Counted from the first letter of the stretch, positions 11,687 to 42,058 are shown. The stretch: DNA of 42,058 nucleotides from an uncultured Melioribacteraceae bacterium (GCA_964640985.1 CAZXJG010000004.1:1-42058); one strand, 5' to 3'. Translations and numbers: made by a program. Notes: generated from the sequence alone by a model not told the origin.

Positions 11687-12961
11687 ATGAAGGAAAAACA
11701 ATTTGAATATGGTTTAAAGTATCTTATCGAAGAATTTGGAGAAGATGCTGTAAACAAGGCAATAAAAGCCATTGAAAACTTTAAGGTAGAAATTCCAAGC
11801 TGGGTTTTTGGTAATTTTGGCGGGAATAGATTTGGGGAATATATGACCCCTGGTTATGCAAGGAATATAAATGAAAAATTAGATGATGCAGCGTATGTTG
11901 ATAGATTAACGTATGCTGTTGATGGAATAGCAACGCATATATTATGGGATTATTCAATTGATGGTATAAAAGGATCATTTGAAATTGCTGAACATGTAGC
12001 TCAAGAAGCAAAAAAGCGTGGTTTAAAACTAGGTTCAATTAATCCGACGTACTTTCTAAAAGGTTCGCACCGGGGAAGCTTATCTGCCGAAGAACCAAAA
12101 ACCCGGGATAATTTTATTGAACAAACAATTCTTGCCGCCCGAATTGCAAGTGAATTAGCAAATAGAATTCTAGCAATTTGGGTCCCGGATGGTTCGAATT
12201 ATCCAGGACAAGTTGAGTTACGAAAAGCTTTTAAAAATACAAAACGCTCGCTTAAAGAAATTGCTAAAGGAATTGAAAAAATTAATAAGAATTCAAAGGA
12301 TGGAAATGTAAAAACATTAATTGAATATAAAGTATTTGAACCTGGTACTTATAGTACTGTAATATCAGATTGGGGAAGTGCATACCTCTTAGCTAGAGAA
12401 TTCGGTGAAAATGGAGGTGTTCTAATTGATATGGGGCATCATCTCCATTCAACTAATGTAGAACAAATTATTGCTAAATTATTAAATGAAGGTATGTATG
12501 GCGGACTTCATTTTAATACTAGGTATGCAGCAGATGATGATCATGCAGTTGAACCTAATTCACAAATGGCAAGAGTTTTCTATGAATTAGTTTCCGGCGG
12601 TGGTTTATTTGGTAACAATAATTGGGCAATGATGATAGACCAGTGCAGCAGTAGAGAAAAAAGAATACCTGCAATTTTACATTCTATTGATTCTTTGCAA
12701 TTATCTTTGGCAAAGTCAGTGTTGGTAAATAAAGAATTACTTTCAGTTTATCAAAAAAATGATGATGTCATATTAGCCAATCGTATATTCAATAATGCAA
12801 TTATGAACGTTGATGTACGACCAATCGTGGCGAAGGCAAGGCTAAATAAAAATTTACCTGTCGATACACTTGAAGCTTACTACAAAAGCGGCTACCAAGA
12901 AAAAATAGAACATGAACGAATTAAAAAATCAGAGGCAAATACTATTAAAATTAATTCATAA
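11687..12961 (+). CDS. rhaI: L-rhamnose isomerase, Pseudomonas stutzeri-type (xylose-isomerase-like TIM barrel)
   Basis: 424 aa. From memory it aligns with P. stutzeri L-RhI: IPSWVFGNFGGNRF, KLDDAAYV, VWVPDGSNYPGQ, EYKVFEPGTYSTVISDWGSAYLLA, LIDMGHH..STNVEQI, GGLHFN.RYAADDD. Confidence 0.88.
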   Translation: MKEKQFEYGLKYLIEEFGEDAVNKAIKAIENFKVEIPSWVFGNFGGNRFGEYMTPGYARNINEKLDDAAYVDRLTYAVDGIATHILWDYSIDGIKGSFEIAEHVAQEAKKRGLKLGSINPTYFLKGSHRGSLSAEEPKTRDNFIEQTILAARIASELANRILAIWVPDGSNYPGQVELRKAFKNTKRSLKEIAKGIEKINKNSKDGNVKTLIEYKVFEPGTYSTVISDWGSAYLLAREFGENGGVLIDMGHHLHSTNVEQIIAKLLNEGMYGGLHFNTRYAADDDHAVEPNSQMARVFYELVSGGGLFGNNNWAMMIDQCSSREKRIPAILHSIDSLQLSLAKSVLVNKELLSVYQKNDDVILANRIFNNAIMNVDVRPIVAKARLNKNLPVDTLEAYYKSGYQEKIEHERIKKSEANTIKINS

Positions 12962-13164
12962 ACTAAATGTCTCTAATAAGTCGTTTTCAATTTATCGAAT
13001 CATTAATATTAACTAAAATCAAAGCTTATCCGTAAGAAAAATATTTTTTAGAGGGGATTCATAATTCAAATGTTAAATTTGATAATATGAATTGGTACAA
13101 TTTTTTTTGTTCATTAAATGTATTTATTATCTTAATAAGAAACTAATTAAAAAAAAGGACTTGT

Positions 13165-14592
13165 ATGTTTAAAGAGAAATTGCTAAGTCATCTGAATTCA
13201 GTAGAAGAATATGAACGGACTCCGGTTCCAAAACTACAGCGGAAAGGATGGGGGGGCTTTATAGGTATGTATATCGGAGAACATACTGCAGGCACAGAAT
13301 TTGTTATAGGACCTTTATTCGTTGCTCATGGGGTGACCGCTAGCGATTTGATTTTTGGATTATTAGTAGGTGATTTTTTAGCCGTATTAAGCTGGGCGTT
13401 TATTTGTTCCCCGATCGCTACAAGATATCGTTTAACGCTTTATTATATGCTTGAGAAAATTTGTGGGGTTAAATTAACAACGGTATATAATTTAGTAAAT
13501 GCACTTATGTTTTGTTTTCTTGCCGGAGCAATGATCGCAGTTTCTGCTACTGCAGTCGGTATCCCATTTCACTTAGGTATGCCTTCACTGAATCAATGGT
13601 TACCGAATAGTTTTGAGTGGATAATTATAGTTATACTTGTTGGAATAGTTACTACTTTGATAGCAATGTTTGGATATAATCAAGTTTCTAAATTTGCTAA
13701 TATAGCGGCGCCTTGGATGATTCTTGTGTTTATTGCTGCAGCTGTAGCTGTATTGCCGGATTTAGGTGTTACTTCAGTATCAAATTTTTGGGAAATCGCA
13801 AAAACAAAAATTTGGACAGGTAAAGCACTGCCCGGACAAAGCCAATTCACCTTTTGGCATGTTATGTTCTTCGCCTGGTTTGTTAATATGGCTATGCATA
13901 TTGGAATGTCTGATTTGTCTATTCTACGTTATGCAAAAAAATGGTATCATGGTTTTTCTCCAATTGGTGGAATGTACGTTGGTCATTATATCGCTTGGAT
14001 TGCGTCGGGTATTTTGTATGCATTGTTTTTACAAGAAACGCACTTTAGCACACAATTTGCCCCTGGTCCTATTGCCTACCGGGCTGCTGGAATAGCAGGT
14101 GCTATATGTGTAATTATAGCTGGATGGACTACAGCAAATCCTACAATTTACCGAGCCGGTTTAGCTCTTCAAGCTATAAAGCCGAAATGGAAGACCTGGA
14201 AGGTTACTATGATAGTGGGTTTGATGACTACCATAGTAGCAATATTTCCTGCCATAGTTATGAAACTACTCGATTTTGTAGCTCTTTATGGTCTTATATT
14301 AATGCCGATGGGCGCAATAATAATGATGGATGTTTATATACTACCAAAACTAAATTTAAAACCAAATTTTGCTGAATACTTTCACAAATCTTTGAATCAA
14401 GCTGCGATGATTACATGGGTTCTAACTTTGATTTTATGTCTGGCTATTAATTTATATTTTGGAATGGAGATTTTCTTTTTAGGTTTACCGGGATGGTTTA
14501 TCGCATCAATAATATATATTATCTCAAGTGTAATAATGCAAAAAATAACAACTAAAAGGAGTATGACCAATGAAGTTAAAATTGTTGCTTAA
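13165..14592 (+). CDS. NCS1/cytosine-permease-like membrane transporter; substrate unknown, context suggests rhamnose or rhamno-oligosaccharide
   Basis: 475 aa, about 12 hydrophobic segments. The N-terminal ERTPVPKLQRKGWGGF...G lead-in resembles purine-cytosine permease family openings. Confidence 0.6.
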   Translation: MFKEKLLSHLNSVEEYERTPVPKLQRKGWGGFIGMYIGEHTAGTEFVIGPLFVAHGVTASDLIFGLLVGDFLAVLSWAFICSPIATRYRLTLYYMLEKICGVKLTTVYNLVNALMFCFLAGAMIAVSATAVGIPFHLGMPSLNQWLPNSFEWIIIVILVGIVTTLIAMFGYNQVSKFANIAAPWMILVFIAAAVAVLPDLGVTSVSNFWEIAKTKIWTGKALPGQSQFTFWHVMFFAWFVNMAMHIGMSDLSILRYAKKWYHGFSPIGGMYVGHYIAWIASGILYALFLQETHFSTQFAPGPIAYRAAGIAGAICVIIAGWTTANPTIYRAGLALQAIKPKWKTWKVTMIVGLMTTIVAIFPAIVMKLLDFVALYGLILMPMGAIIMMDVYILPKLNLKPNFAEYFHKSLNQAAMITWVLTLILCLAINLYFGMEIFFLGLPGWFIASIIYIISSVIMQKITTKRSMTNEVKIVA

Positions 14593-15037: not shown

Positions 15038-16051
15038 ATGTATCAAAAAATAAGAAATAAATTAACCTTAAAAGATGTGGCGAAGGAGTTGTCCGTTACG
15101 CCGGCAACGGTTTCCAAAGCGCTAAGAGATAGCAGTGATATCTCTTTAGAAATGAAACAAAAAGTTAAAAAAATTGCAAAAAAATTGGGGTATCGCCCAA
15201 ACTTATTGGCAAGATCGTTAATTAGTAAAAAAAGTAAATTATTGGGAATATTAATTCCGGACTTACGAATATCTTTTTTCTCCGAAGCTGTAAGAGGTAT
15301 ATACGAGGAAGCAAATAGGAAAGGATATGAAACTATTTTGTTGGTTCATGATGAAAATAGAGTAATTGAGAGGAAAAAATTAGAATTCTTATCAGACATT
15401 CATACTGATGGAATATTATTAAATGCAACAGGGGCTAAAAGCAATTATAAACTTTATACTAAATTAGCCGAAGAAGGTATAAATATAGTTTGTTGGGATA
15501 GAAAATTAGAAGGACTTGAGTTTTATTCGGTAACGATTGATGACAAAAAAGCGTCTTTCGAACTGACATCAAAGATGATCAATGAGGGACGAAAACATAT
15601 ACTTTTTTTAGGTCCAAATACGGGGATACCTGTTGCAAAATATCGTTTTGAAGGATACAAGTTAGCTTTGGAACACCATGGTATTGCTTTTGATCCCAAA
15701 TTGGAAGTTCAAACATTCAGGAATTATTCTGATAGTTATAAAAAAATATTATCATTGTTAAAAAGTAAAATAAAAATTGATGCAATTGTTAGTATTGGCG
15801 GTTTAATTACTTATGGTGCTGGGAAAGCAATTTTAGATAGCAAACTCTCTATTCCGGATGATATAATGCTTGGTGAATTTGGTGATAATAATATTGTTTA
15901 TAAACTAAGTGTCCCTTTTTTAACTGTCTATCAACATCCTTATACCTTAGGAAAGTCTTCTGTTGATTTACTTATTAAATTAATTGAAAATCAGGATAAA
16001 TTAGATGATTTTAAAGATATCATAATAGATTCTGAAGTTTTGCAGCGTTAG
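15038..16051 (+). CDS. LacI-family transcriptional regulator
   Basis: 337 aa. N-terminal HTH TLKDVAKELSVTPATVSKALRD, followed by a periplasmic-binding-protein-like sugar-sensor domain. Confidence 0.9.
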   Translation: MYQKIRNKLTLKDVAKELSVTPATVSKALRDSSDISLEMKQKVKKIAKKLGYRPNLLARSLISKKSKLLGILIPDLRISFFSEAVRGIYEEANRKGYETILLVHDENRVIERKKLEFLSDIHTDGILLNATGAKSNYKLYTKLAEEGINIVCWDRKLEGLEFYSVTIDDKKASFELTSKMINEGRKHILFLGPNTGIPVAKYRFEGYKLALEHHGIAFDPKLEVQTFRNYSDSYKKILSLLKSKIKIDAIVSIGGLITYGAGKAILDSKLSIPDDIMLGEFGDNNIVYKLSVPFLTVYQHPYTLGKSSVDLLIKLIENQDKLDDFKDIIIDSEVLQR

Positions 16052-16401: not shown

Positions 16402-18258
16402 ATGAGAAACACTAAGTTGATAAAACGATTATCATTATTACAAATAGTAGCATTCAGTTTAGTCATTTTTATAAATTTTGTCGGCTCAGATAAAATATTT
16501 GGTAAAGAAATATTAACAATAAAATCTGATACTAAATCTGTACAAATGGGGCGTACCTTTCGATTAAAGGCACATTTAAAGTTAAAATCCGAATCATTGG
16601 CGAAAAACTATCTATTGCTTCCGTATGTGAATAATCGTAGATGGGGGGCTCAAGAAAAACCTGATTCCAATGGGGATGCAATTTTTATTATACCCCTTCC
16701 AAAGCCTGGTTGTGCAAATATTCAAGTGATTGCAGTGAAATCAGAAAATGACAATTGGATGGGAATTTCCAATCGGGATCTCTTAATGGTTGGTAAACTC
16801 ATGCCCGAGAATGTAGGTATAAGTTCCAACAAAATTAAAATCATAGTTAAAAGGCGAAAGATGCCTAAATTACCTGATGATTCTCATTTTTTTTGTATTC
16901 AATACGAGACGTGGTTTTCTCCTGAATCTTCTTATTGGCAAACTGCCGAAGCAGTACCCCTCATTGGTTTTTATGATTCATATAACGAAGACGTAATCCG
17001 ACAACAGATACTTTGGCTTGTGGATATTGGCGTGAATACAATTATGTTGGACTGGTCTAATCATATTTGGGGTGATGAACACTGGAATCAGCGTGGAAAT
17101 GGGGCAAGAACAATCATTAATAACACTACATTTTTTCTAGAAGTACTTGCAAAAATGCGTGATGATGGTATTGATATCCCCAAAGTTGTATTGATGACGG
17201 GGCTCAGTAACGGACCACCTGCAACAGTAGAAGCTTTAAACGAAGAATTACATTGGATATATCAAAATTATATTCTAAATCCACGATTTAAGAATTTATT
17301 TTGGATTTATGAAGATAAACCCTTAATGGTCATTTTGGATACTGGTGTAATTGGGAATAAGAAGGGTACTTCAGAATCTGCATTTAGAGTACCATTTTTG
17401 AAACAAACCCTTGCTCTTTCTGTTAAAAAACTCAATGAATTTAGAGCCGCTCAAGTTCCAATTGATGACACACATTTTACTATACGTTATATGTCAACTC
17501 AAAATCAGATTACTCATCATAATAAATTAGGCTATTGGTCATGGATGGATGGACAATTAGAGCCTATCGTAACTTATTATAAAGGGAATCCGGAAGCAAT
17601 TACAGTTACACCTTCATTCTTTGTACCAGGGGGTTGGACAGCACAAGGATCTTATGGTCGACTCGGCGGAACAACATATCTTGCAACATTCAAGGTTGCT
17701 CTGAAATATAGACCTCGTGTAATATTTCTTCACCAGTTTAACGAATTTGCCGGGCAAAGGAAAGGACATGGATATGGTAAGAATAAAAGTATTTTTCTTG
17801 ATGAATACAGTAAGGAATTAAGTGACGATATAGAACCGGTATCATTGACAACTCGGGGTTATCGAGAAGACAAAGGGGGATGGGGATTCTATTATCTTAA
17901 TCTAACACATGCTCTAATAGACATATTTCGCGGAAATTCAAGAGGTAGTACAATTTTAGCAGTTGCACCACCACATGTAGTTAAGGATAAGCTATACCTT
18001 AATTGGTCAACAGCGGGAGTATTACCGAGAAACTTTACAATAGCTATTGATGGTAAGACAGTGATAAAAAATATTACCGGAACTTCCTGTAATATTCCTA
18101 TAGATGGTTTAACTTCCGGCTATCACAATATCACTGTCGTTGCAAATGGAGCTATTACACATTATCCTCTTTCTAAAATAAAGTTTGATAACTTTACGAG
18201 ACTCCCAATGTTAGTTAAAGTAAAAAGGGTATTTCACTTAAATAGAAATAAAAGATAA
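16402..18258 (+). CDS. Exported TIM-barrel glycoside-hydrolase-like protein, family unassigned (GH99/WbsX-like pattern), flanked by Ig-like modules
   Basis: 618 aa with an N-terminal hydrophobic signal. Core pattern YETWF...PLIGFYDSYNEDVIRQQILWLVDIGVNTIMLDWSN ... FLHQFNEFAGQ ... LDEYS.ELSDDIEP. Distant paralog of the 26024 gene. Confidence 0.55.
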   Translation: MRNTKLIKRLSLLQIVAFSLVIFINFVGSDKIFGKEILTIKSDTKSVQMGRTFRLKAHLKLKSESLAKNYLLLPYVNNRRWGAQEKPDSNGDAIFIIPLPKPGCANIQVIAVKSENDNWMGISNRDLLMVGKLMPENVGISSNKIKIIVKRRKMPKLPDDSHFFCIQYETWFSPESSYWQTAEAVPLIGFYDSYNEDVIRQQILWLVDIGVNTIMLDWSNHIWGDEHWNQRGNGARTIINNTTFFLEVLAKMRDDGIDIPKVVLMTGLSNGPPATVEALNEELHWIYQNYILNPRFKNLFWIYEDKPLMVILDTGVIGNKKGTSESAFRVPFLKQTLALSVKKLNEFRAAQVPIDDTHFTIRYMSTQNQITHHNKLGYWSWMDGQLEPIVTYYKGNPEAITVTPSFFVPGGWTAQGSYGRLGGTTYLATFKVALKYRPRVIFLHQFNEFAGQRKGHGYGKNKSIFLDEYSKELSDDIEPVSLTTRGYREDKGGWGFYYLNLTHALIDIFRGNSRGSTILAVAPPHVVKDKLYLNWSTAGVLPRNFTIAIDGKTVIKNITGTSCNIPIDGLTSGYHNITVVANGAITHYPLSKIKFDNFTRLPMLVKVKRVFHLNRNKR

Positions 18259-24448: not shown

Positions 24449-24483
24449 TGATCGTCATTTCAAAATTAGTCATGGAAAAACAA

Positions 24484-24512: not shown

Positions 24513-24537
24513 AAAATTGATGGAATCTGATGGTTGG

Positions 24538-25999: not shown

Positions 26000-26016
26000 T
26001 CGATGTTTATTTAGGA

Positions 26017-32933: not shown

Positions 32934-35753
32934 ATGAAGGTATATTATAGTTATAAACAGTTTTATAAGGGGTTTACAATCCAGTTTATTAGGTTTAGTG
33001 TAATTGTATTAGCGTTGATGTTATTGATAATATTTTTAATACCGAATAAAATTTATGCACAAAATGGCAGTCTTAATGTAAAAGGTCTTCGTACAGAATA
33101 CCTAAGAAATCCGAGCGGTATAGATATGGCTCATCCAAGATTTTCATGGGTATTAAGCAGTGAACAGCGAGATGTTATGCAAAAAGCTTATCAGATTATA
33201 GTTGCAAGTACTAGAGATAATCTTTCTAATGATAAAGCAGATATGTGGAATTCGCAAAGAGTAATTTCTGATAAATCGATTAATGTAGTATATAACGGAA
33301 AACCATTTAAAAGCGATCAAACCTATTACTGGAAAGTAAAAGTTTGGAATCAAGACGATGAAGCAAGTCAATGGAGCCGGATCAATTTTTTCCATACGGG
33401 TCTTTTAAAAAAATCTGACTGGCAAGGTGAATGGATCGGAGCCAAAGATACTACCATTTCCGCACCTCTACTAAGGAAAGGATTTACAATAAATAAAAAA
33501 ATAAAAAGTGCTTATGTTTTCATAGTAGGACTGGGATATTATGAACTCTACTTAAATGGGGAAAAAGTAGGAAATCATGTCTTGGATCCGGGAACTTCCG
33601 ATTATAATAAAAGGGCATTGTATGTTACTTATAATATTAAAAAGTACTTGAAAAAAGGGGGAAATGCTATTGGGGTATGGTTGGGGAATGGATATTTTCG
33701 TATGCGAACAATTCGACATTATGGAGATAGTCCTCAGTTATTATTGCAGATGAATATCCGATATACTGATGGTACGGTAAATCATATTGTTTCAAACACA
33801 ACGTGGAAAACATCCGGTAGTCCAATTATAGCAAATAGCATATATGATGGTGAGATATTTGACGCACGTAAAGAAAAACCTGGTTGGAATTTACCAGGTT
33901 ATAATGACCGGAATTGGAATAATGCGGTCAAAGTAAATGTTCCTAAAGGAAGAATATTATCACCCCAATTAATGCCTCCCATTCGAGTTGTTAAGACTCT
34001 TTATCCAATCAGTATGAGTGAACCGGTAAAGGGTATCTATGTATTTGATTTTGGTCAAAATTTAACGGGCTGGGCGGAACTTTTTGTGAATGGAGGAGAA
34101 GGACAAAAAGTAATTATGAAAACAGCTGAGGTAACAGTTAAAGATATGGCTCAATTGAAAGAGGAAGGAACAAATTCAATTATCGATACCATTGATGCTG
34201 TATCAGATAGATCGGCGAAGGCAAGAGATATTTACATATTAGCCGGTAAACCTGGAATGGAAACTTACGAACCCCGATTTACGTATCATGGTTTTCGATA
34301 TGTGCAGGTAGAAGGTTATCCGGGAAAACCAGATCTGACTAGTATAGTGGCTAAGGTAGTTCATACAGATGTTACTCCTATTGGGAATTTTTATAGTTCA
34401 AATTCTCTTTTTGATAGAATACATCATAATGTGCTATGGGGACAGTTGAGCAATTTGTTTAGCATACCAACCGATTGTCCGCAGCGGGACGAACGAATGG
34501 GTTGGATGGCAGATGCTGATTTGTCGGCGGAAGAAGCCATACATAATTTTGATATGGCAGCTTTTTATACGAATTGGATTAGAGAAATTCAGGACGATCA
34601 AAATAAAGACGGGAGTGTTCCTGATTTAGTACCTCATCATAAATGGAGTGGAGTAGGGACACCGGCTTGGCAAGTTGCATATCCATTAATGATTTGGTAT
34701 ATGCATAAATATTATGGGGATGTCCGGATTATGAAAGAGCATTACAATAGCCTAAAGAAATGGATGAACTATATGAGTTCAATATCTCATAAATATATAA
34801 TTACTCGTGGTCGTGGTGATTGGGTGCCTCCTGAATTGGCTGGTGGGCCAAATAATCGTTCCATCGCTATTACTTCAACAGGATATTATTATAAAAGTGC
34901 TGAAATCATGGCTTACATTGCAGGTATTTTAGGAAATGGAAAAGATAGTGTTATGTATTCGCATTTAGCCGGTAGTATTAAACGTGCATTTAACAATCGC
35001 TTTTGGAATGCAACGAAAAATGTTTATGGTACGGGTTCGCAGACAAACAACGCTTTTCCTCTCTATCTTGGAATAGTGCCTAAAGACAAACAACAAAAGG
35101 TCGTCAAAAGCCTGGTGAATAACATAATGCTAACGCATAATGGACATTTATGGACAGGAATTATTGGTACTAAAGCTCTAATAGAAGCACTACCTGAATA
35201 TAATCAAATCAAAGTGTTATATACTATTACTAAACAAACAACTTACCCTGGTTGGGGATATATGATATCCAAAGGAGCTACCACTCTTTGGGAGAGATGG
35301 GGAGGTTACCGTTATTTTAATGCACAAATGAATTCTCTCAATCATATAATGTTTGGAAGTATTGATGAATTCTTTTATAAGGATCTTGCGGGAATAAAAG
35401 TGAAAAAATCTGGATTTAAACAAATTCTTATAAAACCCCATATTGTAGGAGATTTGAAATTTGTTAAATCTTCGATAAAAACCATAAGAGGTTTGGCAGC
35501 TTCTAGTTGGGTAAGGAATGGGAATAATCTCACGCTTAAGGTAATAATCCCTGCTAATAGTAAAGCTGAAGTAGATATTCCGGCTACAAATATGAGAACT
35601 CCTTTAACCCTAAAAGAGAGTGGCAAAATAATTTTTGAAAATGGTACCTTTAAAAAAGGTGTATCCGGTATTAATGGTGTAAAAGAAAATAAAAAATACA
35701 TAATAGTAAATATAGGTTCGGGAAATTATAAGTTTAAGTTAAAAGGGCAATAA
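32934..35753 (+). CDS. Alpha-L-rhamnosidase, GH78
   Basis: 939 aa. N-terminal LRTEYLRNPSGIDMAHPRFSWVL, then YYWKVKVWN. Catalytic (alpha/alpha)6 region with PTDCPQRDERMGWMADA. Typical multi-domain bacterial rhamnosidase length. Confidence 0.9.
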   Translation: MKVYYSYKQFYKGFTIQFIRFSVIVLALMLLIIFLIPNKIYAQNGSLNVKGLRTEYLRNPSGIDMAHPRFSWVLSSEQRDVMQKAYQIIVASTRDNLSNDKADMWNSQRVISDKSINVVYNGKPFKSDQTYYWKVKVWNQDDEASQWSRINFFHTGLLKKSDWQGEWIGAKDTTISAPLLRKGFTINKKIKSAYVFIVGLGYYELYLNGEKVGNHVLDPGTSDYNKRALYVTYNIKKYLKKGGNAIGVWLGNGYFRMRTIRHYGDSPQLLLQMNIRYTDGTVNHIVSNTTWKTSGSPIIANSIYDGEIFDARKEKPGWNLPGYNDRNWNNAVKVNVPKGRILSPQLMPPIRVVKTLYPISMSEPVKGIYVFDFGQNLTGWAELFVNGGEGQKVIMKTAEVTVKDMAQLKEEGTNSIIDTIDAVSDRSAKARDIYILAGKPGMETYEPRFTYHGFRYVQVEGYPGKPDLTSIVAKVVHTDVTPIGNFYSSNSLFDRIHHNVLWGQLSNLFSIPTDCPQRDERMGWMADADLSAEEAIHNFDMAAFYTNWIREIQDDQNKDGSVPDLVPHHKWSGVGTPAWQVAYPLMIWYMHKYYGDVRIMKEHYNSLKKWMNYMSSISHKYIITRGRGDWVPPELAGGPNNRSIAITSTGYYYKSAEIMAYIAGILGNGKDSVMYSHLAGSIKRAFNNRFWNATKNVYGTGSQTNNAFPLYLGIVPKDKQQKVVKSLVNNIMLTHNGHLWTGIIGTKALIEALPEYNQIKVLYTITKQTTYPGWGYMISKGATTLWERWGGYRYFNAQMNSLNHIMFGSIDEFFYKDLAGIKVKKSGFKQILIKPHIVGDLKFVKSSIKTIRGLAASSWVRNGNNLTLKVIIPANSKAEVDIPATNMRTPLTLKESGKIIFENGTFKKGVSGINGVKENKKYIIVNIGSGNYKFKLKGQ

Positions 35754-36227: not shown

Positions 36228-36542
36228 ATGACAAAAATTGCTTTCAAAATGAAATTAAAACCCGGCTGTAAAAAAGAATATATTAGAAGACATAATGAAA
36301 TATGGCCGGAATTAAAGGAATTACTTATAAATAACGGTATACATGATTACACTATTTTTTTCGATAATGAAACGAACACTCTTTTTGCTGTTCAATATCA
36401 AGAGGGTTCTATCTCTTCACAAGATTTAGGCAATAATGTAATAGTTAAGAAATGGTGGAAATATATGGCTGATATTATGGAAACCAATCATGAACTATCA
36501 CCAATTACAGTTCCACTTGAAAAAGTATTTCACATGGATTAA
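36228..36542 (+). CDS. rhaM: L-rhamnose mutarotase
   Basis: 104 aa. FKMKLKPG...EY..RH.EIWPEL and YTIF pattern of the RhaM/YiiL family. Confidence 0.88.
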   Translation: MTKIAFKMKLKPGCKKEYIRRHNEIWPELKELLINNGIHDYTIFFDNETNTLFAVQYQEGSISSQDLGNNVIVKKWWKYMADIMETNHELSPITVPLEKVFHMD

Positions 36543-36759: not shown

Positions 36760-38943
36760 ATGAAAAAAAAGCTGAAATATTTGGAAGATAAATGGGATGA
36801 AAAATATGCTAATAAACTAGATGAACCTGAAAAATTACGCTACCGTTCTAATTTATTAGGCTCAGATTTACGTATAACAAATTTTGGAGGTGGAAATACT
36901 TCTTCTAAAATTATGATGAACGATATCCTTTTGGATAAATCTGTAGAGGTACTATGGGTAAAGGGAAGCGGTGGAGATCTTGGCTCCATCAAACGGAATG
37001 GTTTTGCAACTTTATATATGGATAAATTTTTATCAATTGAAAATAAATACAAAGGAGAAAAGTTTGAAGATGAAATGCTTGAATTTTATCCTTTGTGTAC
37101 ATTCGGAATAAATCCGCGCCCTGCTTCCATTGATACACCTCTGCACGGATTAATCCCGTATAAAAATGTTGATCATATGCACCCCGACTGGGCGATTGCT
37201 ATAGCTGCTTCAGCAAATGGTAGGCAATTACTGGCAGAATTTAATCGAGAATTCGGTTATAATATCGTTTGGGTTCCATGGCAGCGACCGGGGTATCATC
37301 TTGGTACTATTCTTAGAAAAGTTATTGACGATAATCCTGATGCGGAGGGGGCTATTCTAGCTTCACATGGTTTGATAAACTGGGCTGATGATCATTACGA
37401 ATGTTATCGACGTACATTAGAAATAATCGATAGTATGGGACAATTTGTAATATCGAAAATTAATAAAAAAGGAGAGAAAATATTTGGCGGGCAAAAATAT
37501 CAAACGCTTGAGAACAGAAAAAAAATTATTGAACAAATTTTACCTATCATTAGAGGTATTATTGGAGCGGATAAATCGGTAGTTGGTAATTATTCTGATT
37601 TAAAAGAAGTCCTAAGGTTTGTTAATAGTCATGATGGAGAAAAATTAGCTTTTATAGGTACAAGTTGTCCTGATCACTTTATTCGGACAAAAGTTCGTCC
37701 AATGTATGTAAATTGGAATCCTCAAAATGATAGTTTTAAATCACTAGAGAAAGCTGTGTCCGATTCTTTTAAAAAATATGAAAGTGATTATAAAAATTAT
37801 TATGAAACAAATAAAGAAGCCGGCTCTCCAGCCATAAGAGGCACAAAACCAACCGTGGTTCTATTACCCGGTGTTGGGATGCTTAGTTTTGGAAAAAATA
37901 AGAAAGAAGCTGGAATAACAGGTGAATTTTATGTTAATGCTATTCATGTAATGGAGGGAGCTACATCGATGGATACAGGTGTAATTGATGAGGGAATAGA
38001 CAGGGAGAGGGTTTATAATAACTATGTATCTTTATCTTCAAAAGAAGCATTTAGAATTGAATATTGGGCATTAGAAGAAGCGAAAATTCGACGTCGACCT
38101 AAAGAAAAAGAATTTGATAGAAAAATTGCAATCGTTGTTGGCGGAGGGAATGGTATTGGTCGTGAGTTTTGTTTAAAACTTGCAAGTGAAGGAGCTCATG
38201 TTGCAGTTGCCGATATTGATATTAAAGCTGCAGAAGAAACAGTTCAACAATTAAATTCCAGATATGGTTCTGAAATTTCAAAAGCTGTTCAAATAAATAT
38301 TACAGATAGACAATCTGTTATAGGTGCATACAATAAAGTTATTTTAGAATTTGGTGGCATAGATATATTAATCAATACAGCAGCAGTTTTTATACCAGCC
38401 GATAAGGAAGAGAATTCATATTATGATGAAACATGGGACAAAATATTTAATATAAATGTAACAGGTAATTACATCCTTGTTGAAGAGTTTGCAAATGTAA
38501 TAAAGAAACAAAAAACTAGCGGTACTATTTTGTTAACTAGTTCAGCTAATGCCGTAGTTCCAAAAACTGGCAGTGAGCCGTACGATGTCAGTAAAGCCGC
38601 AGTAAATCACTTAATTAGGGAGCTTGCAATCCGTTATTCTCCACTGATCAGAATAAATGGAGTTAGTCCTGCAACTGTAATTGAAGGCAGTACAATGTTC
38701 CCCCGTGATCGGATAATAAATAGTCTCGAAAAATACCAAATAAAATTTGATCAAAGTGAAGACACTGGATCTTTACGGAATAAATTGGCAAATTTCTATG
38801 CTAAGCGAACTTTGTTAAATAAAGATGTTCATCCATTAAATATTGTTGAAACGGGTTACTATTTGATATCGGATAAGGCTAGTAGAACAACAGGGCATAT
38901 CATACCTGTTGACGGAGGTCTTAAAGAAGCTTTTTTGAGATAA
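36760..38943 (+). CDS. rhaEW: Bifunctional rhamnulose-1-phosphate aldolase / lactaldehyde dehydrogenase (class II aldolase fused to SDR)
   Basis: 727 aa. N-terminal LRYRSNLLGSDLRITNFGGGNTS and aldolase/adducin-type region. C-terminal SDR with VVGGGNGIGRE and catalytic YDVSKAA (YxxxK). Confidence 0.88.
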   Translation: MKKKLKYLEDKWDEKYANKLDEPEKLRYRSNLLGSDLRITNFGGGNTSSKIMMNDILLDKSVEVLWVKGSGGDLGSIKRNGFATLYMDKFLSIENKYKGEKFEDEMLEFYPLCTFGINPRPASIDTPLHGLIPYKNVDHMHPDWAIAIAASANGRQLLAEFNREFGYNIVWVPWQRPGYHLGTILRKVIDDNPDAEGAILASHGLINWADDHYECYRRTLEIIDSMGQFVISKINKKGEKIFGGQKYQTLENRKKIIEQILPIIRGIIGADKSVVGNYSDLKEVLRFVNSHDGEKLAFIGTSCPDHFIRTKVRPMYVNWNPQNDSFKSLEKAVSDSFKKYESDYKNYYETNKEAGSPAIRGTKPTVVLLPGVGMLSFGKNKKEAGITGEFYVNAIHVMEGATSMDTGVIDEGIDRERVYNNYVSLSSKEAFRIEYWALEEAKIRRRPKEKEFDRKIAIVVGGGNGIGREFCLKLASEGAHVAVADIDIKAAEETVQQLNSRYGSEISKAVQINITDRQSVIGAYNKVILEFGGIDILINTAAVFIPADKEENSYYDETWDKIFNINVTGNYILVEEFANVIKKQKTSGTILLTSSANAVVPKTGSEPYDVSKAAVNHLIRELAIRYSPLIRINGVSPATVIEGSTMFPRDRIINSLEKYQIKFDQSEDTGSLRNKLANFYAKRTLLNKDVHPLNIVETGYYLISDKASRTTGHIIPVDGGLKEAFLR

Positions 38944-39051: not shown

Positions 39052-40551
39052 ATGGAAGAAAAAAAATTTATCGGTTTTGATATAGGGGCAGAAAGCGGGC
39101 GCTGTGTGGTTGCTAGATTGAGTGATAATAAATTAGAATATCACGAAGTACATCGCTTTTCAACATATAACATTAAATATGAAAAAGGATTTTATTGGGA
39201 TATCTTAGCAATTTATAAAGAAATTATTACCGGTTTGATTAATGCACAAAAAGCTTATGGTAGTAATTTCAATGGTATTGGAATCGATACTTGGGCTGTA
39301 GACTATGTTTTAATTGATTCAGATGGAAGAATATTAGGCTATCCTTATCATTATCGTGATGACCGTACGGATGGAATAATGGAAAAGGCATTTCAAATTG
39401 TTTCAAAAAATAAAATTTACAATCAAGTTGGTATTCAATTTGTTCAATTCAATACACTTTTTCAATTTTTAGCAGAGGAAATGCAAAATTTAAATTTATT
39501 AAATATTACAGACAAATTTCTTTTGATACCTGACTTTTTAAGCTTTTTACTTTCCGGTAAAAAGAAAGCTGAATTTACAAACGCATCTACCACTAGTCTT
39601 GTTAACCCTTTTAAGAGAGATTGGTGTTGGGAATTGATTGATGAATTCAAATTGCCGAGAAAAATATTCCCGGAAATAGTAGAACCAGGGCATATATTAG
39701 GAAATATTCTTCCTTCTATTGCAAAGAAGACTGGCTTAAATCCCGCTACTCCTGTCATTGCTACCTCCAGTCATGATACTGCTTCGGCAGTAGTTTCTGT
39801 GCCTGCAGCCGAAAATAATGAATGGGCATTTTTGAGCTCGGGAACATGGTCTTTAATAGGTATCGAATTAAAACATCCGTTCATTACTTCAGAAGCAATG
39901 GATTACAATTTTACTAATGAAGGTGGTGTTGAAAATACCACGCGATTTCTTAAGAATATTATTGGATTATGGCCGGTTCAAGAATGTAAAAGGAATTGGG
40001 ATGATAAATTTACGAATTATAACTATACTGAATTAGTATCATTAGCTAAAAAAAATGGTTATGCAAAATCATGGATAAATCTAAATGATTCAAGATTTAT
40101 TAAAGCAGGTCGAATGCCCGAAAAAATTCAAGAATATTTAAGAGAATCTGCACAAACCGTTAAATCTGATGCCGGATTTATTATTCGTGTGTTGCTTGAA
40201 AGCCTTGCTTTTAATTATAGAGAAACGCTAAAGCAAATTGAAGAAGTAACGGGAGAAAAAATAAAAAGTTTATATGTTGTGGGTGGGGGTGTTCAGAATG
40301 AGCTTTTAACACAGTTAACAGCGGATGCTATAAATCGTGATGTTTATGCCGGACCAATTGAAGGAACAATAATTGGGAATATTGGCGTTCAAGCGATAGC
40401 TGCGAAGGTTGTACCTAATCTTAAAACATGGAGAAATATTGTGGCAAATTCATTTGAGTTAAAAATATATAAACCAATGAATACGGAATATTTCAATGCA
40501 AATGAAAAGGATTATAGAAAGATATTGGAGTATAACCATGATAATTATTAA
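39052..40551 (+). CDS. rhaB: Rhamnulokinase (FGGY family)
   Basis: 499 aa. FGGY N-terminus IGFDIGAESGR, GIDTWAVDYVLID, HYRDDRT, and C-terminal VVGGGVQNELL. Confidence 0.88.
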   Translation: MEEKKFIGFDIGAESGRCVVARLSDNKLEYHEVHRFSTYNIKYEKGFYWDILAIYKEIITGLINAQKAYGSNFNGIGIDTWAVDYVLIDSDGRILGYPYHYRDDRTDGIMEKAFQIVSKNKIYNQVGIQFVQFNTLFQFLAEEMQNLNLLNITDKFLLIPDFLSFLLSGKKKAEFTNASTTSLVNPFKRDWCWELIDEFKLPRKIFPEIVEPGHILGNILPSIAKKTGLNPATPVIATSSHDTASAVVSVPAAENNEWAFLSSGTWSLIGIELKHPFITSEAMDYNFTNEGGVENTTRFLKNIIGLWPVQECKRNWDDKFTNYNYTELVSLAKKNGYAKSWINLNDSRFIKAGRMPEKIQEYLRESAQTVKSDAGFIIRVLLESLAFNYRETLKQIEEVTGEKIKSLYVVGGGVQNELLTQLTADAINRDVYAGPIEGTIIGNIGVQAIAAKVVPNLKTWRNIVANSFELKIYKPMNTEYFNANEKDYRKILEYNHDNY

Positions 40552-40572: not shown

Positions 40573-41112
40573 ATGCAAAATCAAATCAATTCAGAAATAA
40601 TGAATCATTTCATCTTTTCAGCAAGGGAATCGACCGCAACTGTAGAGATTGTAGCACAAAATCCAGAATCATTGAATAATGCTCTAATAATGGCTATAGA
40701 AAATAAATTAGTTCTCTTAGCTGAACCAGCTAATTTGAACCTAGAATTATTTCAAAAATTCAAATTGAACAAAAATGTAATTACTAAACCGACAAAGGAA
40801 CAACTTTCTACTCTAAAGATTGGTCTCACAGATGCATTTTGTGCGATAGCCTCAACAGGTTCTGTATGTGTCCCCATTACAAATAATTTATCAAGCCCTG
40901 TAAGTATGTTGACTCAAAAACATATAGTAATAGTTGATAGTAAAACAATAATACCCAGACCTCGAGATATTTTTTCAAACAATTATTTGAATGGAATAGG
41001 CTTATCTCTAAGCTTTTCAATAATTACAGGACCAAGTGCAACTGCAGATATGGGGCCTTTGGTGAGAGGCGTACATGGACCCGGTAAATTACATATAATT
41101 ATTTTAAAGTAA
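40573..41112 (+). CDS. lutC: LutC-family (LUD domain) lactate utilization protein
   Basis: 179 aa. LUD-domain end motif ...ITGPSATADMGPLVRGVHGPGKLHIIIL. Sits directly upstream of lutB. Confidence 0.7.
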   Translation: MQNQINSEIMNHFIFSARESTATVEIVAQNPESLNNALIMAIENKLVLLAEPANLNLELFQKFKLNKNVITKPTKEQLSTLKIGLTDAFCAIASTGSVCVPITNNLSSPVSMLTQKHIVIVDSKTIIPRPRDIFSNNYLNGIGLSLSFSIITGPSATADMGPLVRGVHGPGKLHIIILK

Positions 41113-41116
41113 TCTT

Positions 41117-42058
41117 ATGAAAAATTCATATAACTACAAAATTCATCCCCGAGAAGTAGCAAATAAATCTTCAAAAGAAGCTTTATTGAAAGCAATCGAC
41201 ATGGCTCTTAATACAGAAAGCACAGCCGTTAGACACAATACTCAAACTTTTAATACCAATCGATATAAAGCTGTAAAAAAAATAGAGGATTATGAAGAAT
41301 TAAAAAATCTTGCTCGGGAAATAAAAGAGTGGTCAATTAAAAATCTACCGGAATTGATTAATAAAGTTACGAAAACGATCGTAGCAAGAGGTGGAAAAGT
41401 ATATCTTGCTAAAACCCAAAAGGAAGCTACTGATTATATTAAAAGGGTTTGTCAGGAACACGATGCAAAGCTTGTAGTAAAATCTAAATCAATAACATCT
41501 GAAGAAATTAAGCTTAATACAGTTCTAGAAAAAGCGAATATTGAAGTTGCAGAAACAGACTTAGCTGAGTTTATTCTCCAGGTATCGAAAGAACAGCCGT
41601 CTCATATTGTTGCTCCGGCTATTCACAAAAGTAGAGAGAAGATTTCAAAATTATTTAAGCAACATTTTAACACGGATAAACCATTAGAAACGGGTGAAGA
41701 ATTAACTGAATTTGCTAGAGACATTTTAAGACAAAAATTTCTTAATGCAGATATTGGCATTAGCGGTGCAAATTTGATAGCTGCAGAAGAAGGGAGTATT
41801 TTATTGGTAGAAAGCGAAGGAAATATTCGTCTTACTACCCAGCTTCCTTCAATCCATATTGCTATTGCAGGCATTGAAAAAATCATCAACAGCAAAAGAG
41901 ATTTCGGTATATTCATAGAACTGTTAGCCGCTAGTGCTACAGGTCAATCATTAACATCATATACAAATATTTTGGAACCGCCGCTTGATTTGCCCATACT
42001 TAATTTAAATGGGAGAGATGATACAAAAAGAGAATTTCATCTTGTACTTTTAGACAAT
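41117..42058 (+). CDS. lutB: LutB-family iron-sulfur lactate utilization protein, 5' partial (runs off the window)
   Basis: Open frame of 314 codons from ATG 41117 to the window end, so it is missing from the track. Translation includes ...KVYLAKTQKEATDYI...KLVVKSKSITSEEI.LN..LE...IEV.ETDLAEFILQ...EQPSHIVAPAIHKSRE...DIGISGANLIAAEEGSILLVESEGN.RL, the LUD part of LutB/YkgF. Confidence 0.8.
   Translation, partial: MKNSYNYKIHPREVANKSSKEALLKAIDMALNTESTAVRHNTQTFNTNRYKAVKKIEDYEELKNLAREIKEWSIKNLPELINKVTKTIVARGGKVYLAKTQKEATDYIKRVCQEHDAKLVVKSKSITSEEIKLNTVLEKANIEVAETDLAEFILQVSKEQPSHIVAPAIHKSREKISKLFKQHFNTDKPLETGEELTEFARDILRQKFLNADIGISGANLIAAEEGSILLVESEGNIRLTTQLPSIHIAIAGIEKIINSKRDFGIFIELLAASATGQSLTSYTNILEPPLDLPILNLNGRDDTKREFHLVLLDN

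Follow-up and report, generated by a model that had tools for sequence, protein, structure and literature searches.

Gene content of the locus

In the 42,058-bp window (the whole stretch of DNA analyzed in this study), annotation of ORFs and domains placed the genes across positions 11687 to 42058 all on one strand (Table 1). Every gene listed in the original prediction was found in its expected place. A 475-aa permease, which is part of the locus, is an addition to that list. The phosphorylated L-rhamnose pathway is complete, with RhaM, RhaI, RhaB and RhaEW all matched by NCBIfam. RhaM (TIGR02625, 108.8 bits, cut-off 99.6) and RhaEW (NF006189, 955.6 bits, cut-off 634) exceed the family cut-offs, and the best matches of RhaI (TIGR02635 within NCBIfam, 314 bits) and RhaB (TIGR02627, 494 bits) lie under (531) and slightly under (528) theirs, respectively. 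RhaI homologues in two related loci, L001 and L167, additionally match PF06134 RhaA. The LutB-like frame matches PF02589 (E 2.3e-40), and its full-length homologues have 729-738 aa with Fer4 domains. No LutA is visible within the window.

Table 1. Features of the locus and their positions in the window
Feature	Position	Strand	Basis or remark
Probable RhaI-type L-rhamnose isomerase (xylose-isomerase-like TIM barrel)	11687..12961	+	Pfam AP_endonuc_2; TIGR02635
475-aa polytopic inner-membrane permease, unnamed family	13165..14592	+	10-12 hydrophobic segments
LacI-family regulator	15038..16051	+	Pfam LacI, Peripla_BP_1/3/4
P4, family A, signal peptide, no sorting domain, presumed periplasmic	16402..18258	+	BLASTP to P8; A5 profile
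TonB-dependent receptor (TBDR), non-SusC type, N-terminal carboxypeptidase-regulatory-like domain	18644..21652	+	Pfam CarbopepD_reg_2, Plug, TonB_dep_Rec_b-barrel
P6, family C beta-helix (1-500), F5/8 type C (512-633), T9SS type A CTD (674-749)	22190..24448	+	Pfam, NCBIfam
Spacer, 1.57 kb	24449..26023	.	Between P6 and P8, interrupts the cluster
P8, family A barrel, inserted and C-terminal beta-sandwiches, T9SS CTD (773-848)	26024..28579	+	AF2, profile
P9, family B, signal peptide, no CTD, presumed periplasmic	28820..29884	+	32% identity to P10; A4 columns
P10, family B, signal peptide, no CTD, presumed periplasmic	29881..31005	+	Similarity to P9, P11
P11, family B core (about 1-310), middle beta-rich domain, T9SS CTD (467-542)	31226..32863	+	AF2, Foldseek
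GH78 alpha-L-rhamnosidase, signal peptide, no CTD, presumed periplasmic	32934..35753	+	Five rhamnosidase domains
RhaM, L-rhamnose mutarotase	36228..36542	+	PF05336; TIGR02625
RhaEW, rhamnulose-1-phosphate aldolase and lactaldehyde dehydrogenase (SDR) fusion	36760..38943	+	NF006189, TIGR02632
Probable RhaB, rhamnulokinase (FGGY family)	39052..40551	+	FGGY_N, FGGY_C; TIGR02627
LutC-like LUD-domain protein, L-lactate utilization	40573..41112	+	PF02589
LutB-like, N-terminal 314 aa, cut by the window end	41117..42058	+	Frame translation; PF02589

The permease had no match in Pfam, NCBIfam or PDB. A homologue adjoins RhaI in L167/L098 as well (934 bits), and RhaT occupies the equivalent position in related loci. 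It is a candidate importer of rhamnose or a rhamno-oligosaccharide. The TBDR scores 321 bits with TIGR01782 (cut-off 310) and is not matched by the SusC model TIGR04056 of NCBIfam. Pfam returned zero SusD-family matches anywhere in the region, which agrees with the predicted lack of a SusD-like partner. As SusD-less clusters are usual in Ignavibacteriales (PMC10576277) and fit the older Xanthomonas-type CUT-locus concept, the absence of SusD alone is not unusual.

The spacer between P6 and P8 holds a reverse 137-aa zinc-ribbon ORF (25144-25557, with a weak Pfam Zn_ribbon match only) and two near-identical 19-nt palindromes, and the gap at this position in L001 is 125 bp as opposed to 1.57 kb here. 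It is probably a mobile-element remnant lying outside the locus function. A comparison of the intergenic regions found no operator motif common to them.

Three families of exported proteins

Six exported proteins had been predicted in addition to the rhamnosidase, and all six were recovered: P6, P8 and P11 carry type A sorting domains (TIGR04183, E about 1e-13), and P4, P9 and P10 have signal peptides without a sorting domain. The GH78 enzyme (Pfam Ig_Rha78A_N, Bac_rhamnosid_N, Bac_rhamnosid, Bac_rhamnosid6H with E 1.8e-101, and Bac_rhamnosid_C) is indeed the sole exported enzyme that Pfam, NCBIfam and PDB-sequence scoring placed in a named family. As single sequences, P4, P6 and P8-P11 matched no Pfam or NCBIfam catalytic family and no PDB sequence. 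Two multi-copy families had been proposed among these proteins. Both are real (BLASTP: P4-P8, E 2e-6; P9-P10, 32% identity, E 6e-53; P10-P11, E 1e-4), each with one CTD-bearing member and at least one without, but there is a third, represented by the N-terminal 500 aa of P6. The division into T9SS-secreted and CTD-less copies recurs in L167 with a pair from a different GH99-clan family, WbsX. None of the six unassigned proteins is a fold orphan.

For family A (P4 and P8), more than 5386 homologues of P8 were found, and the family has over 5000 clusters, spread across six or more phyla. Its profile A5, within which P4 aligns, matched GH99 structure 4acy (E 2.6e-5). The match runs over two co-linear segments and takes in the NEW motif, with TGWNEWIAG aligned to TSFNEWHEG. 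One residue of the GH99 catalytic Glu pair is conserved and the second is Ala; PF16317 is weakly matched by 4 of 25 members. The AF2 model of P8 (pLDDT 72) shows the domain layout, with the catalytic domain modeled poorly (pLDDT 40-55, residues 390-530). By its sequence profile, family A is a remote GH99-like TIM barrel, and it may be catalytic. Orthologues of P4 (614-618 aa) adjoin the T9SS copy in five other loci, L001 among them.

Family B comprises P9, P10 and P11. The genes for P9 and P10, orthologues of which were found in L001, are probably translationally coupled because they overlap by 4 nt. Their GC content looks foreign. P11 has 815 homologues and was modeled confidently (pLDDT 89.9); the best PDB matches by Foldseek were GH174 structures 8jd7 (E 2.5e-10, TM 0.61) and 9k1g, at 12-14% identity. 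The model indicates a mutarotase-like supersandwich, and among solved folds the GH174 endo-1,3-L-fucanase comes closest to it. In alignment A4, Asp39 and Asp129 are invariant and many aromatic residues are conserved, and the family may be catalytic.

Family C (P6) shows invariant N165, N200, H228/N229 and N251/N252 in alignment A3, which might constitute an Asn ladder. Among 65 distant relatives, PF13229 Beta_helix was matched in 31 and a T9SS CTD in 61; CBM35 is present, and a few match DUF4957 or DUF5123, both of them uncharacterized beta-helix domains of Bacteroides. The family profile matched the C-terminal domain of PL6 structure 7dmk (E 1.6e-10), a beta-helix that lacks catalytic activity and binds polysaccharide (PMC12992946). 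By these matches, family C is a right-handed beta-helix T9SS cargo with this non-catalytic, glycan-binding domain as its nearest solved relative.

It is probable that the locus encodes undescribed depolymerases. The two enzyme-like unnamed families look like good candidates for new carbohydrate-degrading enzymes, and CAZy may already list one of the three families. A different reading, which we consider unlikely, is that the target is a well-studied plant glycan of the pectic or arabinogalactan kind (RG-I, RG-II, gum arabic) and that the three families are divergent or recently catalogued members of known CAZy families, which would make this an ordinary PUL variant. Family A does also sit in canonical SusC/SusD PULs, those of Bacteroidales from gut and rumen, where GH78, GH106, GH2, GH29, GH43, GH127 and apiosidase-like genes adjoin it, a combination that recalls RG-II and AGP degradomes. 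Its neighborhoods include GH92 as well, and from this range of neighbors it follows that the families are not confined to one substrate. However, no RG-I, RG-II or AGP enzyme in the PDB was matched by any of the three families, whether by single sequence or by profile, and hundreds of homologues are named only “hypothetical” or “T9SS sorting domain-containing” at their source. Pfam found no GH28, GH105, GH88, PL1, PL4, PL9 or PL11 (the lack of recognisable GH28, GH105, PL4, PL9 and PL11 types had been predicted) and no genes for uronate catabolism in the locus.

Conservation of the cluster and its link to rhamnose

A synteny survey showed that the cluster recurs in other assemblies and metagenome loci. 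In L001, which comes from another assembly, the order is RhaB-LutC-LutB-RhaA-famA618-TBDR-famC-famA853-famB-famB-x-GH78; L084 and L167 have layouts akin to this one, and parts of the cluster reappear in dozens of metagenome loci. As the gene order is repeated in L001 and its parts in dozens of loci, the cluster is far beyond chance. LacI homologues lie immediately 5' of the TBDR in five loci. L001, L084 and L167, together with L123 and L130 (see below), bear out the proposal of a coherent conserved unit that couples the complete rhamnose pathway to a TBDR, to cargo of the T9SS and to periplasmic proteins.

The most distinctive feature of the locus, absent from the original prediction, is the conserved pairing of the TBDR and family C genes. 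Of 67 metagenome loci with family C, 60 have a homologue of this TBDR directly 5' of it, and the similarity scores of the two proteins co-vary (Spearman 0.67, n=44). The SusC-type TBDRs of other loci did not match this TBDR. Where 3 kb or more can be seen past the pair, half (20/40) of the family C loci have rhamnose genes (GH78, GH106, or rhamnose catabolism or transport); no rhamnose gene was seen in the other half. When 100 family A neighbors were sampled at random, rhamnosidases (GH78 and GH106) were likewise the most frequent glycosidases, and there are three GH78 genes in one family A locus (L085) and both GH106 and GH78 in another (L086).

That the exported and the rhamnose catabolic genes adjoin by accident, without forming a functional unit, is highly improbable. 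The lack of a common operator motif, the insertion that splits the cluster and the GC content of P9 and P10 would fit such an origin, but it is already contradicted by synteny: the combination is repeated in independent assemblies with differing gene orders, and in half of the family C loci surveyed.

Family C, and possibly family B, might not be enzymes at all but T9SS-anchored surface proteins that bind glycan and capture substrate for the TBDR, so that family C would be a functional stand-in for SusD/SusE-type proteins, leaving family A and GH78 as the only true depolymerase candidates. We regard this as possible, though not as the probable case. It is consistent with: the family C gene coming right after that of the TBDR, an order like that of susC and susD; the binding function of the related PL6 domain; the F5/8 type C domain on P6, as well as the CBM35 and DUF matches of distant relatives; and the galactose-mutarotase-like fold of family B, which is common in non-catalytic domains too. 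At the same time, glycanases are numerous among beta-helix proteins, with the endorhamnosidases of GH90 (tailspikes) and the rhamnohydrolases of GH28 as examples, and the acidic residues of family B are invariant. Also pointing toward an enzymatic role is the minimal operon L123 (RhaB-LutC-LutB-TBDR-famC-RhaM-x-RhaT-RhaA), in which no glycosidase was found among the five Pfam-annotated genes 3' of the pair or by query-protein search, several ORFs there being unannotated.

The same operon, with its pair beside RhaM, RhaT and RhaA, and a second one, L130 (TBDR-famC-GH78-RhaT-RhaEW-RhaI-FGGY), would suit a scavenging role, in which small rhamnosides or free rhamnose (for example plant flavonoid rhamnoglycosides or released oligosaccharides) are taken up without depolymerization and the T9SS proteins are binders or esterase-like helpers. 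GH78 enzymes often act on small rhamnosides. We find this quite unlikely, as the present locus adds six large exported proteins of three families, and homologues of families A and C are fused to polymer-binding CBM6, CBM35, PA14 or F5/8C domains. The paired surface and periplasmic copies suggest stepwise depolymerization instead.

Proposed function and comparison with known systems

We think it likely that the region is a TBDR-based utilization locus of the CUT-locus type for a rhamnose-containing glycan in an Ignavibacteriales-like host. The conserved cluster would probably serve to harvest rhamnose from such a glycan in this Ignavibacteria-type bacterium. The lack of uronate-processing and sulfatase genes in the locus agrees with this reading. 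Of the non-canonical rhamnoglycan locus originally proposed, the conserved, rhamnose-linked unit stands, but the unassigned proteins have fold relatives and form three families rather than two. In the proposed flow: P6 (beta-helix plus discoidin-type binding domain), P8 (a GH99-like barrel) and P11 (a GH174-like supersandwich) would be exported by the T9SS, held at the surface or released, and together bind and cut the polymer; the fragments would enter through the TBDR; P4, P9, P10 and GH78 would complete the breakdown to L-rhamnose in the periplasm; the permease would import the rhamnose; and RhaM, RhaI, RhaB and RhaEW would convert it to DHAP and L-lactate, the latter being oxidized by LutB/C. 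The whole set might be controlled by the LacI regulator.

The locus resembles Bacteroidota SusC/SusD PULs in the carboxypeptidase-regulatory-like domain of its TBDR, a dedicated regulator, co-located surface and periplasmic glycan-active proteins, and a surface-protein gene directly 3' of the transporter gene. It differs from them in lacking a SusD-family gene, in having a TBDR of the TIGR01782 and not the SusC/RagA (TIGR04056) type, in that T9SS type A CTD cargo takes the place of lipoproteins at the surface, and in its regulator, which is LacI instead of HTCS, ECF or SusR. The CUT loci of Xanthomonas and Caulobacter, reportedly described by Blanvillain and colleagues in 2007, combine a TBDR, an inner-membrane transporter, a degradative enzyme and a regulator. 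The TBDR subfamily (TIGR01782, “TonB-Xanth-Caul”), LacI-type regulator, inner-membrane permease, glycosidases and lack of SusD are all shared with those loci, whereas the FCB lineage, the T9SS-exported enzymes of unnamed families, the CarboxypepD_reg domain of the TBDR and its fixed beta-helix partner gene are not.

Reportedly, RhaEW-type L-rhamnose catabolic regulons were analyzed by Rodionova and colleagues in 2013. RhaM, an RhaI-type isomerase, RhaB, fused RhaEW, LacI-family control and lactate as end product are common to both; unlike those regulons, the present locus has a LutB/C link and a large secreted apparatus, and its permease, in place of RhaT or an ABC system, belongs to no named family. 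Polysaccharide degradation through the T9SS occurs in Bacteroidota, for example with the ChiA chitinase of Flavobacterium johnsoniae. The T9SS is the subject of a review (PMC11205867). Sorting domains of the TIGR04183 type on glycan-active proteins, teamed with TBDR uptake, are found in these systems as well as here, but those systems have SusC/SusD pairs and known GH families, while here it is a non-SusC TBDR that is consistently paired with cargo of the T9SS.

At the level of protein families, family A is like the GH99 endo-alpha-mannosidases in its barrel segments and the N-E-W motif with the first catalytic Glu, and GH99-clan WbsX (PF14307) replaces it in L167 with an equal CTD/CTD-less split. 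It is unlike them in falling under the Pfam GH99 threshold, in the Ala replacing the second Glu, in its large inserted and C-terminal beta-sandwiches, and in its rhamnosidase genomic context. In structure, the modeled core of family B comes closest to the GH174 endo-alpha-1,3-L-fucanases (Fun174A, Fun174Sb); they, too, are secreted Bacteroidota proteins, and their substrate is a polymer of another 6-deoxy-L-hexose. However, family B has no profile-detectable sequence similarity to them, the TM-score is only 0.6, and its genomic context lacks both sulfatases and a link to fucose. Finally, the C-terminal beta-helix of the two-domain PL6 alginate lyases (AlyGC, BcAlyPL6) is the sole solved sequence relative of the family C superfamily, which resembles this non-catalytic domain but lacks the PL6 catalytic N-domain and occurs in a context that is not that of alginate.

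Gene content of the locus and its surroundings

From 11687 to the end of the window, all genes except a single small reverse ORF lie on the forward strand. Every gene named in the original prediction (RhaI type, LacI, TonB-dependent receptor (TBDR), GH78, RhaM, RhaEW, RhaB, LutC and LutB) was recovered with Pfam and NCBIfam, so that the mutarotase, isomerase, kinase and aldolase of the phosphorylated L-rhamnose pathway are all present, with RhaB and RhaI under their NCBIfam cut-offs. One gene was missing from that list. It encodes a 475-aa polytopic membrane protein with 10-12 hydrophobic segments, for which no relative was found in Pfam, NCBIfam or PDB sequences. This protein is kept beside RhaI in one related locus (L167), and RhaT occupies the corresponding place in other related loci. 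Most likely, it is an inner-membrane sugar importer, and it may represent a new family of rhamnose transporters.

A shared LacI operator was sought across the promoters of the locus, and no half-site proved commoner than in shuffled controls; co-regulation is therefore without support from a motif. A GC-rich palindrome with perfect arms (TGGCGACTAAGTCGCAA), 94 bp upstream of the lacI start codon, occurs once in the window, which excludes it as a shared operator. An autoregulatory role is conceivable, as is a role as terminator of the permease gene.

Features of the window (genes of the locus on the forward strand unless stated), with profile evidence where it identifies the product
Feature	Coordinates	Description
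23S rRNA	1-236	3' end
5S rRNA	305-421	
tRNA-Arg(CCT)	689-763	
Acetaldehyde dehydrogenase	924-2510	acetylating; TIGR02518, above cut-off
Locus	11687-42058	
Permease	13165-14592	475 aa
Palindrome	14928-14944	TGGCGACTAAGTCGCAA
lacI start codon	15038	
P4	16402-18258	family A
TBDR	18644-21652	
P6	22190-24448	family C (N-terminal 500 aa), F5/8 type C domain, T9SS sorting domain
P6-P8 spacer	24449-26023	1.57 kb
Reverse ORF	25144-25557	137 aa, reverse strand, CxxC zinc-ribbon motifs
19-nt palindromes	25445; 25640	CCACCTTCTTTGAAGGTGG; CCACCTTCTAAGAAGGTGG
87-nt direct repeat	26010-26096; 28806-28892	94% identical
P8	26024-28579	family A, T9SS sorting domain
P9	28820-29884	family B
P10	29881-31005	family B
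P11	31226-32863	family B, T9SS sorting domain
RhaI-type isomerase		best NCBIfam match a rhamnose enzyme, 314 bits, below the cut-off of 531
RhaM		above NCBIfam equivalog cut-off
RhaEW		aldolase-dehydrogenase fusion, NCBIfam 955.6 bits, cut-off 634
RhaB		FGGY kinase, best NCBIfam match rhamnulokinase, 494 bits, below the cut-off of 528
LutC, then LutB		LutB: first 314 residues only within the window
GH78		full set of five Pfam rhamnosidase domains, six-hairpin domain E 1.8e-101

The rRNA genes at the start of the window place an rRNA operon about 11 kb upstream of the locus, and housekeeping genes extend from the rRNA and tRNA genes up to about 11.2 kb. The acetaldehyde dehydrogenase gene just after the rRNA operon is apparently unrelated to the locus. 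Within the locus, the spacer between P6 and P8, whose equivalent in L001 (a related locus from another assembly) is only 125 bp, contains the zinc-ribbon ORF and two near-identical palindromes and is probably a mobile-element remnant. The 87-nt repeat spans the ribosome-binding site and the entire signal peptide of P8, with its copy at the start of P9. The P8 and P9 counterparts in L001 have unrelated signal peptides, and the repeat seems to stem from a duplication or gene conversion of the 5' end that is recent and specific to this lineage. P9 and P10 also differ in composition, with a GC content of 0.46-0.47 against about 0.33 in their neighbours; as it is raised in the L001 orthologues too (15197-17343; 0.43 against 0.36), this gene pair suggests an older acquisition from a higher-GC donor.

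Type A T9SS C-terminal sorting domains (CTDs; TIGR04183/PF18962) were found on P6, P8 and P11 with E values of 1.6e-13 to 7.4e-13. They share 64-75% identity pairwise (BLASTP), and the solved CTDs 8glj and 8glk were also matched by profiles. P4, P9, P10 and GH78 have an N-terminal signal sequence without a sorting domain, and no T9SS component genes lie in the window. In seven of the eight exported proteins (TBDR, P6, P8, P9, P10, P11 and GH78) a Gln directly follows the likely signal-peptidase site, in contexts such as …FSQ/T, …EAQ/T, …NAQ/T and …YAQ/N; P4 is without this pattern. The Bacteroidetes "Q-rule" describes an N-terminal pyroglutamate, and the Gln at these sites fits it.

All-against-all BLASTP confirmed the two multi-copy unassigned families of the original prediction, here called A (P4 and P8) and B (P9, P10 and P11), but raised the total to three, as the first 500 residues of P6 group with neither (family C). 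Used as single queries against PDB sequences, P4, P6, P8, P11 and the permease returned nothing except the discoidin domain. The T9SS CTDs were the sole matches of the first narrow profiles of families A and B, and no catalytic family was returned for A, B or C when the window proteins and the whole alignments were compared with Pfam and NCBIfam.

The TonB-dependent receptor and family C

The TBDR consists of CarboxypepD_reg, Plug and barrel domains and exceeds the TIGR01782 cut-off (321.1 against 310 bits), and the NCBIfam scan gave no match to TIGR04056 (SusC/RagA) at E≤0.01. The predicted lack of a SusD-like partner held: no ORF between 11687 and 42058 matched SusD_RagB or a SusD-like family, and the gene that follows the TBDR is that of P6, a beta-helix T9SS protein. 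That P6 is itself a SusD homologue was ruled out, as its beta-helix contrasts with the helical fold of SusD.

A word-indexed search gave 243 matches to family C, and an exhaustive HMMER search with its N-domain profile gave 861 representatives. The T9SS CTD is present in all 28 members of the family alignment and in 61 of 65 distant relatives, which also carry Pfam Beta_helix (31), CBM35 (19) and, in a few cases, DUF4957 or DUF5123. The invariant Asn and His residues of the family (N165, N200, H228/N229, N251/N252) may represent a right-handed beta-helix signature. Among solved structures, the only sequence relative of family C is the C-terminal beta-helix domain found in PL6 alginate lyases with two domains, matched in AlyGC by the narrow profile (residues 440-532, E 0.008) and in BcAlyPL6 by the broad one (residues 445-679, E 1.6e-10). 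All of these alignments fall in the non-catalytic C-terminal domain, leaving the catalytic N-terminal beta-helix of PL6 (Ca-binding, Lys/Arg site) unmatched. The C-terminal domain is polysaccharide-binding and catalytically inactive (PMC12992946).

When metagenomes were scanned with the family C profile, 484 relatives were returned, from which 80 loci were kept. Upstream sequence of at least 600 bp was available for 67 loci, and in 60 of these a TBDR homologue lay directly upstream on the same strand, the ORF boundaries being -13 to 358 bp apart; the similarity scores of the two proteins co-varied (Spearman 0.67, n=44). The SusC-type TBDRs of other family A loci did not match the window TBDR. 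With RhaA, RhaT and GH106 as added queries, a rhamnose-linked gene was present in half (20/40) of the family C loci in which 3 kb or more could be seen beyond the pair. Among the sequence clusters searched, no named cultured carrier of the pair was found.

A synteny survey, which the original prediction had proposed, recovered the same logic in varied arrangements in L001, L084, L167 and L083, and this synteny rules out a chance juxtaposition of exported and rhamnose genes.

Gene order in related loci (fam, family member; x, other gene)
Locus	Description	Gene order
L001	169-kb contig, another assembly	RhaB-LutC-LutB-RhaA-famA(618 aa)-TBDR-famC-famA(853 aa, T9SS)-famB-famB-x-GH78
L084		AckA-RhaB-LutC-LutB-LacI-TBDR-famC, four exported proteins, RhaM-RhaT
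L167		RhaB-LutC-LutB-RhaI-permease-TBDR-famC-T9SS protein-GH127-WbsX-WbsX(T9SS)
L083	Bacteroidales	TBDR-famC-famA(614 aa)-famA(1200 aa; PA14, CBM6, T9SS)
L130	minimal operon (Pfam)	TBDR-famC-GH78-RhaT-RhaEW-RhaI-FGGY
L123	minimal operon (Pfam)	RhaB-LutC-LutB-TBDR-famC-RhaM-x-RhaT-RhaA-acetylesterase

The pairing and rhamnose-linkage counts, together with the minimal operons, suggest that the TBDR and family C form a rhamnose-associated uptake module to which family A, family B, GH78, GH106, GH127 and WbsX are variable exported add-ons. The role of family C within it may be read in two ways that are about equally likely. It might be a surface glycan-binding partner of the TBDR, as would be indicated by its constant place behind the TBDR gene and by its kinship with a non-catalytic binding domain, or it might be an enzyme, given that beta-helix endorhamnosidases exist and that none of the genes examined in L123 was identified as a glycosidase.

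Families A and B and their nearest folds

Family A is large, with more than 5386 clusters at E≤1e-3 among 8000 candidates examined; sequence identity among its members is about 60% across Bacteroidota, and many are fused to PA14 and CBM6. Its carriers, as recovered by a scan of genomes, span six phyla or more and belong to Bacteroidota (including Bacteroides, Prevotella and Alistipes of gut and rumen), Ignavibacteriales, Calditrichota, Kiritimatiellia, Verrucomicrobiota, Planctomycetota and Armatimonadota. Only after the diversity of its profile was broadened (P4 plus distant members) were the GH99 endo-alpha-mannosidases reached, with E 2.6e-5 over two co-linear segments, the second of which places the family A motif TGWNEWIAG opposite the GH99 catalytic motif TSFNEWHEG. 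The first GH99 catalytic Glu is kept and invariant in family A (E495 of P8), and the second is Ala. The GH99 family PF16317 matched 4 of 25 family A homologues weakly (best 2.5e-6) and neither P8 nor P4. Membership of GH99 proper was ruled out on two grounds, the lack of a score at the curated family threshold and the replaced second catalytic Glu. As judged from a remote profile match with one of two catalytic Glu kept, family A appears to be a distinct family within the GH99 fold group. In L167, family A's place (15808-18429) is taken by a pair of WbsX (PF14307) proteins, of which one has a T9SS sorting domain and the other has none, the same division as in family A. WbsX belongs to the same fold group as GH99. 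WbsX is a glycosyltransferase by name, yet in L167 it resembles an exported glycosidase pair.

The AF2 model of family A, built with 25 close homologues, was mediocre (pLDDT 72). Its beta/alpha pattern is broken by a well-predicted beta-sandwich (about residues 230-370), and another beta-sandwich and the CTD come after it. The barrel was poorly resolved, and the Foldseek matches of the model, all of them Ig-like domains, were uninformative. The genomic context of family A likewise points to rhamnose. Family A is accompanied by three GH78 genes in one related locus (L085) and by GH106 and GH78 in another (L086), and GH78 lies within 10 kb of it in about 17 of 80 genome loci. Rhamnosidases (GH78 in four cases, GH106 in two) were the commonest glycosidases in a random 100 of its 316 immediate neighbours, a sample that also holds DUF5722, SusD, GH2, GH29, GH43 and apiosidase-like proteins. 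Because SusD and several other glycosidases occur in this sample beside the rhamnosidases, family A is limited neither to SusD-less systems nor to one substrate; it consistently accompanies rhamnose-releasing enzymes. We consider it likely that family A is a glycoside hydrolase.

The family B core, about 300 aa long, exists by itself or joined to Big_2 and T9SS domains, and 815 homologues were found. The AF2 model of the P11 core was confident (pLDDT 89.9, pTM 0.86), and its top two Foldseek matches in the PDB were GH174 endo-1,3-L-fucanases (8jd7_A, E 2.5e-10, TM 0.61; 9k1g_A, E 3.3e-8, TM 0.60), with generic galactose-mutarotase-fold domains ranking below them at TM 0.4-0.5. The family B profile matched none of the GH174 chains among PDB sequences at E≤10; the likeness seen in the model is one of fold only, GH174 membership being without sequence support. 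Asp39 and Asp129 are invariant and E140, E174 and E222 nearly so, among many conserved acidic and aromatic residues that persist even in P9 and P10, at 19-21% identity. GH174 enzymes cleave alpha-1,3-linked L-fucose polymers, and the catalytic residues of one of them, Fun174A, are D119, E120 and E218 (PMC11943901). We lean slightly towards family B being a glycoside hydrolase. Minor capsid proteins of the chlorovirus PBCV-1 (8h2i chains cM, cG, cB and cE) are also among the closest folds to its core, at TM of about 0.51.

Proposed function and relation to known systems

The interpretation of the locus as a SusD-less, T9SS-coupled rhamnoglycan utilisation system was largely upheld, and it is sharpened here: the families number three and have recognisable folds of CAZyme type, and a transporter and its partner form a conserved pair at the core. 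According to our model: the surface-exposed T9SS cargo P6, P8 and P11 would bind a rhamnose-containing polymer and cut it into fragments, which would be imported by the TIGR01782-type TBDR; the periplasmic paralogues P4, P9 and P10, together with GH78, would convert the fragments to L-rhamnose, to be imported by the 475-aa permease; and RhaM, RhaI, RhaB and RhaEW would yield DHAP and L-lactate, the latter being oxidised by LutB/C, with LacI probably repressing the set. We regard this overall model of rhamnose-containing-glycan utilisation by a TBDR-based locus as quite probable. A neutral rhamnan-like or rhamnose-rich polymer would be favoured over RG-I, ulvan or gum arabic, since no sulfatase, unsaturated-uronyl hydrolase or uronate pathway was found in the locus with Pfam and NCBIfam, although genes of this kind may be present in another part of the genome.

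GH99 acts on alpha-mannosides, and L-rhamnose is 6-deoxy-L-mannose. As the nearest folds of families A and B, GH99 and GH174 (alpha-1,3-L-fucans), act on rhamnose-related sugars, both families may be compatible with endo-rhamnanase-type activities. A bolder combined reading, which we put forward as tentative and rather doubtful as a whole, is that: the TBDR-family C pair is a widespread T9SS-dependent alternative to SusC/SusD, in which a T9SS-tethered beta-helix is the obligate surface partner of a rhamnoside-specialised non-SusC transporter; and families A and B found new glycoside hydrolase families, endo-alpha-L-rhamnanases or similar, A with a GH99-related mechanism on 6-deoxy-L-mannose and B as the rhamnan counterpart of the GH174 fucanases. 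We class the locus as a TBDR-based glycan utilisation locus, and there is a realistic chance that it will yield both glycoside hydrolase families that are new and a T9SS-dependent equivalent of the SusC/SusD partnership.

Rhamnose-rich glycans are abundant as bacterial and cyanobacterial exopolysaccharides, algal rhamnans and pectic side chains, and to our knowledge almost no endo-acting rhamnan-degrading enzymes are known beyond phage tailspikes. The three widely distributed candidate families all occur in a context that names a likely sugar, and the TBDR-family C pair could explain how T9SS export is coupled to TonB uptake in FCB bacteria without SusD. The literature searched contained no description of this locus, of a constant TBDR-beta-helix T9SS pair, of families A, B and C, or of their link to rhamnose catabolism.

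SusD-less CAZyme clusters are reported to be the norm in Ignavibacteriales MAGs (PMC10576277), so the absence of SusD here is typical of the lineage. The locus shares with SusC/SusD PULs the co-location of glycan-degrading enzymes (GH78 and the GH99-like and GH174-like candidates), but both defining features of those systems, a TIGR04056 TBDR and an adjacent SusD gene, are absent from it. With the CUT loci of Xanthomonas and Caulobacter it has in common a TBDR of the carbohydrate-scavenging TIGR01782 subfamily, a LacI regulator, a permease, glycosidases and the lack of SusD; here GH78, LacI and a permease of presumed substrate lie in one cluster. In concept, the locus thus fits the CUT loci, and SusC/SusD PULs less well.
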